Positions 16,458 to 20,534 of a stretch of DNA of 64,000 bases are shown piece by piece. Origin of the DNA: Candidatus Babelota bacterium (lineage in GTDB: Bacteria > Babelota > Babeliae > Babelales > Vermiphilaceae). Within the stretch, counting starts at the first letter, position 1. Every line of letters starts with the position of its first letter. The notes under the pieces are model-generated. The model saw nothing but the letters and a program-made list of their open reading frames with translations, ran no database searches and had not been told where the DNA came from. Position numbers and translations under genes: made by a program. Location of the stretch: the NCBI GenBank assembly GCA_049325595.1, contig JBMOLF010000001.1, forward strand, positions 1 through 64,000, written 5' to 3'.

Positions 16458-17777
16458 TTATGCTATTTTTCGAATATAAATAATAGCTACCGTTCCTGGC
16501 GCTAAAAAAGGAGCAGTTGATAGGGTCAAAGTACTACCAACTGTTCCGGTATTATTAACTAAACGCAGTGTATCACCGGCATTAACTTGCATCAGAAATT
16601 GACCTGATATAATTTGTCCTTGCGTATTGGAAACTGTAGAAAGACCTATCCCATAGGTACTACCTTCTATTATCGCCCCATTGATATCAATAGCATATAC
16701 TTGAACTTGATCAGAACTATTTCCGCCAGCTTCAAATCCATTTACTGAATAGGTAACTTCATATATTCCCGGATTTGAAAAAGTAAAACTAGTACCTACT
16801 AGGCTCATATTTGAGCTACTAAGCAAACTAAAAGGAAATTCTTGTTGATATGTTAGCGTTTGTCCCGTTTGTATAACGCCAAAAGCAAATGCTTCTGCAA
16901 CACCACCGGGACCCGTATTACCAGTTGGTCCTTGAACGCCAAACGAGCCAATTAATCCTGTTGGCCCCGTAAAACCAGTAACTCCAGTAGCACCAGTAGC
17001 ACCAGTAAATCCAGTAGCACCAGTAAATCCAGTAGCACCTGTTCCGCCTGTTGCACCAATATTACCAGTTGAACCAGTATTGCCCGCTGCACCTAAAGCA
17101 CCTAATGCCCCCTGAGGACCAACTGCACCCGTAAACCCAGTATCACCGGTTGAACCGGTATTTCCGGTATCACCTAATGGACCTAATGGACCTAATGGAC
17201 CCGTAAAACCGGTAAAGCCTGTAGGACCAGTTGCACCGGTATTACCTGTTCCCCCTGTAGCTCCTTGCGCTAATACCTGTGACCCTGGATTACCAGTAAA
17301 TCCAGTAAAACCTGTTATACCAGTTGGCGCAGTTACACCCGGACACCCGGTTAGCGCATTAATTGCAAACGTACCAAAAATAGTACCGCCAACAGCAAGA
17401 TTGTTTACTTTTACTGATTGTTGAACCAATAGATTATCAATTACTTTTCTTTTTTTGTGTTTTCTGGTCTGATTACTGACTGTATGCCAACATTGTTCTA
17501 CTTTATTAGCAAAATCTACGTTAGTAGAATCAATAGTTTGCAGTGCATCTGCTAATGCATATTCAACCAAGACCGCAGGTAACTGAGTAAAGCCATCATC
17601 AATCAATGCATGTTTAACAGCCCTAATCGATGGTCTTACAATACCAGGAATTCTGTGCATTATTTGACCAAATATTTCTTTAAGTTCGTGCGTGCATTCG
17701 ATCATTTCAGTAGATATGTCTTCTTGTGCACACAGCCTAATACTGACAGCAAGCAAGAACAATAATGTACGTTTCAT
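16458..17777 (-). CDS. Collagen-like protein, C-type chain of cassette T3 (~47 triplets)
   Basis: Neck [17 protein letters not shown], 6 Gly triplets + VLAQ + 41, ends IIYIRKIA. Confidence 0.9.
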
Positions 17778-17787
17778 GTATTTCTCC

Positions 17788-19152
17788 TTAATTTGAAATA
17801 CGCTTGATTAACAATGAAGCTGAAGTTCCCAAGTTTACTCCACCTAAGTTACCTGCTATTCCTACACTCACTGTGCTTGTTAACAAATTAACTAGAGAAA
17901 TCGTAGTTCCCGGAACTAATGTTGTTATTAAACCTTGCCCATAGTCTTGCAAGGTTGGGTTTGGCTGGCCATAAGTAAATTGGCTAGCCGGGGCACCATT
18001 CACGGCTACGCCAAAACGAAGCTGACTTATTTCATCTGCCGTAACTATGTAGGTAATTTCATAAGTGCCTGGGTTGTCTAATGTTATTTCACCAGTTATA
18101 TTATTGTACGTCATACCGACTGGTACAGTTGGTTGGGATCCAGCAAAAATAACCGATGCATTTTGCGCAATAGTAACACCAGTTCCGCCAGTGATATAAA
18201 ACATGGCATAAGCCGCTGGATTTAATGCTGCACCGGTAGGCCCTGTTGCACCAGTAACAAGATTTATACTACCAGTAGCTCCTTGCGCTCCCTGTGCACC
18301 GATTGCACCACGAGGACCCGTAAAGCCAGTTAACCCGGTAGCGCCAGTAGCCCCGGTAAATCCAGTAGCGCCTGTAGCACCAGTAAATCCGGTTAAACCT
18401 GTACCACCAGTAAATCCAGTAGCACCCGTAGCACCGGTATTACCCGTAAAGCCTGAAGCTCCGGTAGCACCAGTAAATCCAGTTAACCCTGTAGCTCCCG
18501 TAGCGCCGCTAAAACCAGTTTCTCCTGCTATTCCTAAAGCACCTATTGCACCTTGTGGACCAGTAAAACCACTGTTTCCTGTTGGACCAGTGTTACCCGT
18601 ATCACCAAGAGGACCAGTTGGGCCTTGAGAACCACGTGCACCTTGTGGACCAGTTATTCCGGTAGGATCGATTGTTACAGATACCGGTGCACATATTAAA
18701 CCACCAACACATAAGTTGCCTTTTATTTTAAGACAATTTGCACACAGCTTGCAGTATATTTTGCATTTTTTGCGGGTTGCGTCTCCATTATAAGATACCT
18801 CACTCAACAAAGTTGCATAAAATTGTTTGAGACATTCTTTGTTGCAACAAGCTGGTAGGGCATGTTCATATGAAAGAACTGCTTCTATACCAGCACGAAC
18901 TACTTCAATATCAACATGTTCACTCGATTGCAATTGCGAACATAATTTTTGAAAATCCTTGTGTATTAAAAGTGAATCATTGCCCGCATTAAGAGCATCC
19001 AAACTTTCTTTTACACAGCTTGGTATACAAATGTGAGCCGCATCATCATTGGTGCAGGTTAATTCTTGCTCTACATGTTCATATGACACTATATTACTTG
19101 CATTTACACATGCTATAGCAGTTAATAAAAATAGAACTATTAGTTTCTTCAT
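17788..19152 (-). CDS. Collagen-like protein, B-type chain of cassette T3 (~47 triplets)
   Basis: Neck [26 protein letters not shown], 44 + NLVT + 3 triplets, AYAMF, QDYGQG, ends SLLIKRISN. Confidence 0.9.
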
Positions 19153-19163
19153 GAGCTACCCTT

Positions 19164-20534
19164 TTACCCAATTTGACGTACAATTATTGATGCGGCTACA
19201 TTTTGATTATCAGTACTTGTCGCAAATCCTGTTGAGCTTACTACAATTGAAACTCCAGAAGCATTCACACATCGAATCGTAAGTACATCTCCTGCATTTG
19301 CAGAAAAAACTACCCTACCAGTAACCGATGCCGGTGTCTTAAACCCAGTAATAAAATAAAGAGTTGCTCCTGGTATTAAACTTCCATTAAGAGCAGCCGT
19401 AAATCGAGATGTAGTAGCTGTTCTAATAGTATACAAAACCTCATAGGTACCGGTAGTTGAAATCTCAATATTAGTACTTCCCGGTGCGTGAGTAATACCA
19501 CTTATTGGTCCATTAGTAGTAAATGGAACTGAAGCACTATCAGCTAAAGTAGTTGGATCACCTCCTGTCACGCTCGTTGTTCCACTAAAATAAGCGTATA
19601 AAAATGCTGCATCGCCAGCTGCAAGACCTGCTGCACCAGAATTTCCAGTAAAACCGGTAAAACCCGTAAAGCCAGTCGGACCTGTATTGCCGGTGGCACC
19701 CAATGCACCGAGCGCCCCCCGAGCGCCTATAGGACCCGTAAAGCCGGTGAATCCGCTCGGGCCGGTGTTGCCTGTAGCGCCCAATGCACCGACATTTCCT
19801 TGCGGGCCGGTAAAGCCGGTAGAGCCTGTGTCACCGGTAAAACCCGTGTTACCCGTATTACCCATCGCTCCTGCTGCACCCTGCGGACCGGTAAAACCGG
19901 TAAAGCCCGTTGGGCCCGTAGGTCCAGTAAAGCCAGTCTCGCCAAGCGCGCCTAAAGCGCCCAATGCACCTTGTGGACCGGTAAAACCGGTAAAACCTGT
20001 ATCACCTGCGGCTCCTGTTGCACCTGTTTGGCCTGAACCTCCTATAGCACTGCATGGCTGGGTAATGTTTGGATCCGGGCAAATAGTGCCGCATACAATT
20101 AAGTTGCCCCCAATACGTGCATTCCCACAAACAAAAAGTTCATTAAATGTTTTGCACCGTTTACGCACGGTATCTTCGTCGCAGACAACGCAATCATCTA
20201 AATTAATTAGTTGTTCATAATAGGCATTAACAATATTTAAATCTTGTTGATCTAAAGACAATGCACGCAATTCTTGCGCTGCACATATCATTAACTCAAG
20301 TGGCATATATTCTAGAGTGTGATCAGCGCAGGCTGCTGCCAATGCCACTAATCCTGGGGTATCTTGCATTAATGATGGATCAATTTTGGTACCAATTGAT
20401 CTAATAGGAAAAGTTTTAGCATAATGTTGATTGGGATTGTTACTGGTAAAGGTAATCTGATTTTCTGCTCTTATTATCAAAGAAAATAGTAGCAATAGAA
20501 AAACAGAATTTCGTCTCCATGAGACTATATTCAT
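19164..20534 (-). CDS. Collagen-like protein, A-type chain of cassette T3 (~47 triplets)
   Basis: Neck [29 protein letters not shown], 47 uninterrupted triplets, ends IIVRQIG. Confidence 0.9.
   Translation of the reverse strand: MNIVSWRRNSVFLLLLFSLIIRAENQITFTSNNPNQHYAKTFPIRSIGTKIDPSLMQDTPGLVALAAACADHTLEYMPLELMICAAQELRALSLDQQDLNIVNAYYEQLINLDDCVVCDEDTVRKRCKTFNELFVCGNARIGGNLIVCGTICPDPNITQPCSAIGGSGQTGATGAAGDTGFTGFTGPQGALGALGALGETGFTGPTGPTGFTGFTGPQGAAGAMGNTGNTGFTGDTGSTGFTGPQGNVGALGATGNTGPSGFTGFTGPIGARGALGALGATGNTGPTGFTGFTGFTGNSGAAGLAAGDAAFLYAYFSGTTSVTGGDPTTLADSASVPFTTNGPISGITHAPGSTNIEISTTGTYEVLYTIRTATTSRFTAALNGSLIPGATLYFITGFKTPASVTGRVVFSANAGDVLTIRCVNASGVSIVVSSTGFATSTDNQNVAASIIVRQIG

Follow-up and report, generated by a model that had tools for sequence, protein, structure and literature searches.

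C1q is assembled from three paralogous chains that are encoded by clustered genes, carry collagen stalks of equal length and share a heterotrimeric jelly-roll head, which nucleates the helix; stalk interruptions occur in only some of the chains. BclA and F-BclA of Bacillus, which are found in the exosporium nap and in the tip fibres of appendages, combine a Thr-rich Gly-X-Y stalk of varying length with a trimeric C-terminal head of the TNF/C1q type, and the stalks of BclA are glycosylated. Here, we describe sets of three collagen-like genes that resemble both systems and are located in a stretch of 64,000 nucleotides (hereafter the window) from a member of the Dependentiae (Candidatus Babelota bacterium, contig JBMOLF010000001.1, positions 1 to 64,000). 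In one of these sets, cassette T3 (16458-20534), the stalks of the three chains, A, B and C, are all longer than those of the neighbouring cassettes, and by the same amount. We consider it probable that these tricistronic operons encode ABC heterotrimeric surface fibres of a BclA/C1q-like type. Heterotrimer formation is the best available reading of these length-locked three-gene units, whose products would be collagen fibres of the BclA/C1q-like kind.

With regard to gene arrangement, the closest described analogue appears to be the PCL gene triplets of Pasteuria ramosa. According to the passages that describe them (McElroy et al. 2011, as cited in PMC13233619 and bioRxiv 10.1101/2025.03.22.644704), these triplets contain, like the T cassettes, one gene per sequence group (1-2-3) in a fixed order and in the same orientation; like the ABC cassettes, they are duplicated as units into arrays, and they are carried by a parasite with a small genome. 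The phyla differ, Pasteuria being an endospore former of the Bacillota, whereas the cassettes described here are found in Dependentiae. The relevant passages of PMC10329263 report that triplets, and not single collagen genes, are associated with host attachment and that they control infection specificity, and leave the triplet organisation unexplained; in those of PMC7743900, heterotrimers are raised merely as a possibility. No statement on length matching within triplets was found in the Pasteuria passages or in the one supplement part examined. In the literature searched, no natural heterotrimeric collagen of bacterial origin was found, and no paper, judged by title, dealt with collagen-like proteins in the Dependentiae.

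As regards the proteins themselves, the closest model would be C1q for architecture and assembly, and BclA for fold and stalk chemistry. C1q, however, belongs to the animal immune system, forms a hexamer of trimers in which defined disulfides link the chains, and has neither an N-terminal globular domain nor a neck of the kind found here; the likeness is one of convergence or very distant kinship, not of membership. BclA and F-BclA share with the cassette chains the Thr-rich stalk of varying length and the trimeric head, which is predicted here, but BclA is a single-gene homotrimer whose short N-terminal domain attaches to BxpB/ExsFA of the spore. In contrast, the present chains have a 120-residue N domain without solved relative, a Cys-rich neck and an organisation in three-gene operons, in an organism that is not known to sporulate. 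A classification as exosporium nap proteins of the BclA type was considered and rejected, as the genes are organised in sets of three and the part N-terminal of the stalk, including the neck, has a fold of its own and a length of about 150-165 residues. In animal collagens IV, VI and IX, different chains of matched length are selected and registered by terminal domains, as stated in passages of PMC8968730 and PMC11923368, but the cassette chains are unrelated to animal collagens outside Gly-X-Y. Since the T3 stalks, like those of the cassettes in general, contain almost no charged pairs, their register cannot come from the salt bridges of animal collagens.

Stalk lengths of the ABC cassettes

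The window is the start of contig C1 of a genome of 1.29 Mb (24 contigs, 95% complete) and contains, between 7713 and 24335, collagen-like genes that are all encoded by the minus strand and comprise four sets of three plus a single odd gene (Table 1). Every chain begins with a hydrophobic leader (recognised by eye) and an N domain of about 100-120 residues; a neck then leads to the Thr-rich Gly-X-Y stalk, which carries a head of about 135-155 residues. Alignment of the chains revealed a conserved neck, K-x-F-N-x-L-x-V-x-G-N-x-x-I-x-G-N-L-x-V-x-G-x-I. In bit-score matrices, the non-collagen parts cluster by position in the set and not by set, which defines the classes A, B and C; sequence class corresponds to gene position in 12 of 12 chains of this genome and in 24 of 25 chains of strain Noda2021. 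Homology among the three classes extends from about residue 33 to the C-terminal end (hhalign probability 100, a score that comes partly from the collagen), and all three T3 chains match Pfam Collagen (PF01391), with E-values of 3.3e-21 (A), 8.8e-20 (B) and 1.8e-17 (C). The genes of a cassette are separated by 9-16 nt with GGAG-like sites, whereas the gaps between cassettes measure 143-271 nt. In T3, the A-B gap of 11 nt contains AAGGG and the B-C gap of 10 nt contains GGAG. The listed TTG start of T4_B overlaps A, but an in-frame ATG 18 codons later gives a gap of 8 nt (by eye).

A first-pass annotation of this DNA had assigned 47 Gly-X-Y triplets to each chain of T3 and 27-30 to those of the other cassettes. 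Automated counts (Table 1) agree with the latter range and with the value for T3_A and T3_B, but give 46 for T3_C. The stalk of T3_B is interrupted by a 4-residue break (NLVT) close to the head and that of T3_C by a 4-residue break (VLAQ) close to the neck. Collagen spans, in residues and in the order A/B/C, are 87/91/85 in T1, 89/89/90 in T2, 141/145/142 in T3 and 90/91/91 in T4.

Strain Noda2021 (G001), which belongs to the same genus, possesses eight ABC cassettes (K1-K8) in one array at 680-714 kb. It was isolated on, and grows in, Vermamoeba vermiformis, and was sequenced by PacBio RS II (PMC8812299). In two A genes of this strain (692929-694247 and 708965-710385), the reading frame is broken by a single frameshift inside the stalk or immediately ahead of it. 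These frameshifts may reflect pseudogenes, slippage-prone switches or PacBio RS II indel errors; the two genes were read through, with X at the break, for the measurement of length. As class-specific interruptions break the runs of triplets, length was measured between two anchors in alignments of all chains, from a column in the neck (the Leu of GNL) to a column in the head (the aromatic residue of the AFAY motif).

In the 12 cassettes of the two genomes, the anchor lengths of A, B and C differ by a mean range of 4.6 residues. When the B and C lengths were permuted 100000 times among the 12 cassettes, the mean range was 38.8 (minimum 10.9), and none of the permutations reached 4.6. A chance match of stalk lengths is excluded. 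Across genomes, the lengths of the three chains correlate within cassettes with r = 0.988-0.996, which upholds the first-pass proposal that stalk length is equalised among the three genes. The correlation persists after correction for phylogeny, with about 0.99 for independent contrasts (0.97-0.98 without the three largest contrasts), and two separate parallel events are distinguished.

The history of these changes was traced in separate trees of A, B and C, built from the N domain and head with the stalk removed. All three trees place T3, K2 and K4 in one clade among the short cassettes (SH-aLRT 94/99/97); in the concatenated tree, T3+K2+K4 is supported by 100/100 and T3+K2 by 99/99. Because the three trees are congruent, the cassettes must have been copied as whole units. 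Since the long clade is nested in the short cassettes, the lengthening from about 112 to about 168 residues was one old event per gene, on one branch and before the species split. It was thus inherited from an ancestor that T3 shares with the two long Noda2021 cassettes and is not, as had first been supposed, an event specific to T3 in this genome. About 18 triplets were gained in all three genes, and length has since been constant within 1-4 residues; T3 and K2 measure 166/167 (A), 168/167 (B) and 170/171 (C) at 59-68% N-domain identity. The collagen spans 142-145 residues in four more long B chains from metagenomes (51-62% N-domain identity) and 141 residues in one long A chain. In comparison with T2, which is the nearest short relative of T3 within its own genome, T4 and K3, the extra residues are located mid-stalk in each chain; the stalk ends are conserved within each class, and the exact placement is uncertain in repeats.

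A further change is seen in the clade of T1, K6 and K7 (100/100), in which K6 and K7 are about 20-26 residues longer than T1 in all three chains, with 28/26/25 gapped positions (A/B/C) between T1 and K6. The B tree contradicts a node (88/90 support) that decides whether this change occurred once or twice. The two clearly separate contrasts amount to 54.5/50.0/52.6 and 20.5/22.6/23.6 (A/B/C). Because a single jump is spread by Brownian contrasts over several nested nodes, the number of independent parallel events is best given as two or three.

The repeats within the three long stalks differ, largely as the first-pass annotation described them. T3_A contains four blocks resembling GFT-GFT-GP(Q/I)-GAx-GAx, with a repeat period of about 72-81 bp, and is rich in GC-ending codons: its stalk has a GC content at third codon positions (GC3) of 0.40, with 19 GGC among 50 Gly codons, compared with 0.18-0.19 in B and C, and windowed values reach 0.44-0.61 in the middle of the stalk. 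The GAT/GFT/GLT run of T3_B corresponds to tandem repeats with a period of 27/36, and the 9-mers of T3_C to an array of 9/18/27-mers, with 7.9 copies of period 9 and 86% matches at period 18. The differing repeat architecture and codon usage are in line with the claim that the chains lengthened independently; against it, the DNA of the T3_B and T3_C stalks gives the highest cross-class local score (93, compared with 75 for A-B and 80 for A-C). Same-class scores are 110 for T2_A-T3_A, 181 for T2_C-T3_C and 70 for T2_B-T3_B. Some GAT/GFT composition is common to the T3_B and T3_C stalks. Gene conversion within the cassette was considered and rejected, as the stalk DNA scores show no within-cassette homogenisation.

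Neither K2_B nor K4_B contains the GAT-GAT-GFT array of T3_B, yet T3_B, K2_B and K4_B measure 168, 167 and 169 residues, and the GC3-rich stretch of T3_A is absent from K4_A. It follows that the sequence turned over after the gain while length stayed fixed. Judging from these comparisons, the tandem repeats now present in B and C are products of later turnover at constant length and not the original inserts. Turnover at fixed length argues for a length constraint more strongly than does the original gain.

Single collagens, tandem copies and adjacent pairs

Single collagen genes differ in length between this genome and that of Noda2021. One pair of orthologues with 68% identity outside the collagen has spans of 93 and 324 residues, and further pairs have spans of 64 and 43 (73%), 86 and 63 (60%), 75 and 54 (46%), and 400 and 250 (47%). 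Same-class tandem copies in other genomes of the family, with N domains that are 65-92% identical, have spans of 120/214/501, 90/87/141 and 265/82/93. Conversely, matched sets were found whose ends are only 20-45% identical, namely 54/54/54 on contig C23, 60/57/57 both here (divided between C23 and the window) and in Noda2021, 39/33/35 at 65897-68677 of C1, and 294/299/292 and 522/521/509 in another genome (G009). In the window itself, nine non-cassette collagens have about 14, 20, 23, 31, 131, 19-25, 78, 82 and 28 triplets. The list in the first-pass annotation lacked those with 78 and 82 triplets, and two of the short ones are not independent singles. The window also encodes, at 41473-50441 (minus), three collagen proteins in which the stalk is preceded by a seven-bladed beta-propeller of the DUF5122 family (E 1e-44 to 1e-52), and their Noda2021 orthologues have very different stalks, the 93/324 pair being an example.

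Adjacent collagen genes were surveyed in the whole of this genome, in 88 kb of the Noda2021 genome and in 22 loci of 12 other genomes picked from search matches. The survey covered open reading frames (ORFs) free of masked letters that were at least 150 aa long, with a C-terminal part of 100-200 aa and no fewer than 8 triplets. Same-strand neighbours separated by 30 nt or less differ by at most 9 residues in 33 of 36 pairs (median 2.5), compared with 4 of 19 pairs at gaps of 31-300 nt (median 48), in a sample whose pairs are mutually non-independent and whose loci were not chosen blind. Two of the exceptions among the tight pairs are split ORFs of frameshifted A genes. Outside the ABC family, 11 of 12 tight pairs are matched. 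One pair of G009 (509 and 521) was dropped from the count, as an antisense ORF broke the chain.

Proposed assembly of the three chains

We propose that the three genes of a cassette form an operon, that they encode paralogous chains with a secretion leader and a short, Cys-rich neck of beta type, and that these chains A, B and C would join 1:1:1 into one collagen triple helix whose register comes from clamps at the neck and the trimeric head. Between two such clamps, the chains would have to be of equal length. A homotrimer may drift in length by repeat slippage, whereas an ABC trimer would be locked, a change in length being fixed only when all three genes change. The observed co-variation is the pattern expected of a locked three-gene trimer, as opposed to the free drift of single genes. 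Collagen rises by about 0.29 nm per residue. The long lineage would thus have acquired about 18 triplets, or roughly 15 nm, mid-stalk through repeat expansions that differed from gene to gene, after which stalk length would have been frozen while the repeats turned over. The fibres would probably be glycosylated and exposed on the surface of an amoeba parasite, with head type and reach differing between cassettes.

The head domains are compatible with this proposal. Pfam BclA_C (PF18573) matches the head of A with 38.0 bits (cut-off 38) and that of B with 23.7 bits, which is below the cut-off, and gives no match to C. The structural model of T3_C shows a helical/beta N domain with a predicted local-distance difference test (pLDDT) of 64-83 and a beta-sandwich head with a pLDDT of about 80-90, the neck and stalk being unmodelled. 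As modelled, the T3_C head has a BclA/C1q-like fold: among solved folds it matches F-BclA (9h38, TM-score 0.81-0.82, E 1e-9), BclA (1wck, 0.76) and C1q (1pk6_C, 0.80), with E-values from 1e-9 to 6e-7, as well as BxpB/ExsFA, 3tyj and ligands of the TNF family; 9h38, 1wck and 3tyj rank best. Sequence identity to C1q is only 12-16%. The heads of T3_A (288-456), T3_B (291-454) and T3_C (274-439), each with its own alignment, were then modelled as a complex, and the ABC trimer was predicted with an ipSAE of 0.91 (0.91/0.91/0.88 in individual runs), compared with 0.69 for the best control; that mark is attained by 116 of 157 solved complexes and by 2 of 215 mismatched pairs. At least 88% of the contacts are common to the runs, and the pLDDT of each partner is at least 87. 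The prediction supports the binding of the T3 A, B and C heads as one trimer, and class-specific motifs are located at the predicted B-C contacts (by eye only).

Several observations weigh against a heterotrimer. The matching is inexact, with chains up to 9 residues apart (K6, 128/137/134; T1, 108/115/111), and the 4-residue breaks, being specific to B or to C, are not paired with a break in the remaining chains. One tight pair, in G029, is unmatched, with 143 and 82 residues. The complex test scored ABC and does not tell it apart from AAA, BBB or CCC; as the trimers of BclA and C1q are solved, its outcome may stem from likeness to them, and the control in which A was swapped for an unrelated protein still reached 0.69. 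Conservation of the interface columns is not discriminating (0.42-0.60 per class, 0.48-0.55 overall), and a comparison of the Phe-rich blocks between chains for register gave no clear alignment. Finally, the ABC family shows only two or three independent length changes and was sampled from two genomes of one genus and a few metagenomic proteins; a search of metagenome contigs with the B alignment, based on a collagen motif, yielded 76 loci, mostly unrelated collagens, and no usable ABC cassette.

The leading alternative, which we regard as unlikely, is that A, B and C form separate homotrimers that act as a unit, for instance bundled at the base and tip or with their heads side by side, and are selected for equal reach. 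The heterotrimers inferred in the first-pass annotation remain the most economical explanation and agree with the head model, but the same results fit three length-matched homotrimers of this kind. The bacterial collagen-like proteins covered by the passages in question of PMC8968730 are all reported and treated as homotrimers, which limits their use as heterotrimer models or materials, and AlphaFold 3 models of the BclA1-3 heads of C. difficile gave homotrimers and no heterotrimers, according to the corresponding passage of PMC13188886. Chain-specific breaks would be unproblematic in homotrimers, and the looseness of the matching also fits them. On the other hand, the cassettes of a single cell encode stalks of about 110 as well as about 168 residues, so that the constraint is specific to each cassette and is not imposed by a layer common to all. 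Three genes make up the unit in the ABC cassettes and in 3 of 4 other gene families examined, although one tight matched pair of two exists. At similar divergence, orthologues of single-gene homotrimers have drifted apart by tens to hundreds of residues, whereas the tolerance between cassette orthologues is about one triplet, which needs explaining under homotrimers; as T3 and K2 differ by 1 residue per chain, equal reach would require unusually strict selection. In addition, the three heads are predicted to fit one trimer.

A mixed or flexible assembly, such as an A2B-type helix, the exchange of chains within a length class, or a two-chain helix with a helper, seems improbable. Three recurring length classes (about 85-91, 108-115 and 141-145 residues) would permit exchange between cassettes, a tightly coupled pair with 248 and 246 residues is present in the window, and in most cassettes two chains out of three have necks rich in cysteine (by eye). 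However, gene content and order are strictly 1:1:1 in 12 of 12 cassettes, and all three chains retain full-length heads and necks. Least probable of all is an absence of selection on length, with matching due to whole-cassette copying or to gene conversion between neighbouring repeats: whole cassettes do duplicate, as the congruent trees indicate, cross-chain stalk recombination does occur, as in the chimeric gene at 11487-12404, and the T3_B and T3_C stalks combine the top cross-class score with a common 22-nt word, but inheritance alone explains neither why A, B and C changed equally on a single branch, as happened on two occasions, nor why arrays with visible turnover, such as that of T3_B, have kept their length within 1-4 residues, while stalk DNA clusters by class or not at all, but not by cassette, codon usage and repeat period differ among A, B and C, and same-class tandem copies, equal at the start, have diverged up to fourfold.

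If the chains do form heterotrimers, the cassettes would provide a natural bacterial ABC system whose stalks are short, lack hydroxyproline and are flanked on either side by compact domains for chain selection, and hence a simple handle on chain selection and register. They would also give the Pasteuria triplets a testable meaning, and they point to likely host-contact fibres of Dependentiae. We see a slightly better than even chance that these are the first natural obligate ABC heterotrimeric bacterial collagens, that tight spacing, dissimilar ends and length-locked stalks together form a general signature, recurring in several unrelated families of Dependentiae, and that the same logic explains the triplets of Pasteuria. 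Only a handful of Dependentiae are in culture. The growth of Noda2021 in Vermamoeba makes the idea bench-testable (PMC8812299).

Locus features and minor observations

Table 1. Features of the window, and anchor lengths of the stalks in this genome (T1-T4) and in strain Noda2021 (K1-K8)
Feature	Position in window	Strand	Description	Anchor length A/B/C
Cassette T1	7713-11343	minus	A 10180-11343, B 8956-10170, C 7713-8939; 29/29/27 triplets	108/115/111
Cassette T2	12570-16186	minus	A 14975-16186, B 13773-14963, C 12570-13760; 29/29/28 triplets	112/113/115
Cassette T3	16458-20534	minus	chains A, B, C; 47/47/46 Gly-X-Y triplets	166/168/170
T3 chain A	19164-20534	minus	456 aa; ORF and translation; hydrophobic N-terminal leader, small alpha/beta N domain, Cys-rich neck, stalk of 47 uninterrupted triplets, BclA_C-like head	
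T3_A stalk-coding part	19620-20042	minus	aa 165-305; GC3-rich in middle and 3' part	
T3 chain B	17788-19152	minus	454 aa; layout as A; 44+3 triplets	
T3_B stalk-coding part	18226-18660	minus	aa 165-309; tandem array of period 27/36 at 18326-18519	
T3 chain C	16458-17777	minus	439 aa; layout as A; 5+41 triplets	
T3_C stalk-coding part	16896-17321	minus	aa 153-294; tandem array of period 9/18/27 at 16969-17039	
Terminator-like hairpin	16413-16433	minus	just 3' of T3_C; 9-pair stem with 6 G-C, then T-rich tail	
Cassette T4	20797-24335	minus	A 23121-24335, B 21973-23166, C 20797-21960; 30/29/29 triplets	111/113/113
Glycosylation island	24444-41406		GT2 x4, GT10-like (fucosyltransferase-like) x2, GT6 (E 2.5e-49), two FkbM-type and other methyltransferases	
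Cassette K1				111/110/109
Cassette K2				167/167/171
Cassette K3				104/111/109
Cassette K4				166/169/167
Cassette K5				112/110/108
Cassette K6				128/137/134
Cassette K7				129/137/135
Cassette K8				105/104/106

Contigs of the probable source sample match 16400-20600 without differences, with a break at about 17281, inside the C stalk; further sequencing runs yielded pieces of only 151 nt. The hairpin that follows T3_C is predicted to mark the end of the T3 operon. Similar hairpins are found 3' of T1_C (7677-7705) and T4_C (20636-20668), and none between A, B and C; the overall hairpin count is not above that of shuffled sequences (19 vs 14.4). The glycosylation island occupies 17 kb between the ABC array and other collagen genes, and its enzymes are candidate modifiers of the Thr-rich stalks, which would fit a glycosylation of the BclA type.

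The N domain of chain A (20043-20534) is predicted as a confident small alpha/beta fold (pLDDT 85-97, residues 40-125), for which Foldseek found no match among solved structures (best E 0.95). A profile of the A-type N domain retrieved 37 cluster representatives at E<=0.001, 13 of them at <=1e-10, among 1.84 billion. Several weak matches cover only the neck, in repeats of very large proteins, and these giant proteins with neck-like repeats carry weak Pfam matches to bactofilin or phage tail fibres. Inspection of the alignment by eye indicated that cysteines are abundant in the necks of two of the three chains and that the two concerned vary by clade, being A and B in the group of T2, T3, T4 and K2-K4, and A and C in T1, K6 and K8 (examples of the neck region are 20043-20130, 18661-18750 and 17322-17420). 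Interchain disulfides might therefore link two of the three chains.

A 305-aa chimera is encoded at 11487-12404 (minus), with an A-type N domain and neck, 14 triplets and a C-type head that lacks about 24 residues. The N part scores highest against K5_A (248, others at most 133) and the head against K5_C (401, others at most 159). The gene looks like the remnant of a fifth cassette in which the stalks of A and C recombined and B was lost. At 146-1039 (minus), a gene with 20 triplets (60 aa of collagen) is the first gene of another three-gene set, the rest of which, with 57 and 57 aa of collagen, is located at the end of C23 (36463-38267). The set is intact in Noda2021 (669184-671943, 60/57/57), so that C23 probably adjoins the start of C1.

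A different unit of four ORFs is present at 50573-55167 (minus). The first encodes 178 aa with a leader, N domain and neck but without collagen; it is followed by two full chains that are 2 nt apart, have 248 and 246 aa of collagen and ends that are 34-37% identical, and, 182 nt further on, by a head-like ORF of 202 aa. This unit may be a two-chain variant or may include a decayed third chain. Adjacent collagen genes with spans of 160/160, 420/410 and 59/59 were also seen on unrelated metagenomic contigs (L088, L063 and L079), and length-matched adjacent collagens may thus extend beyond Dependentiae.

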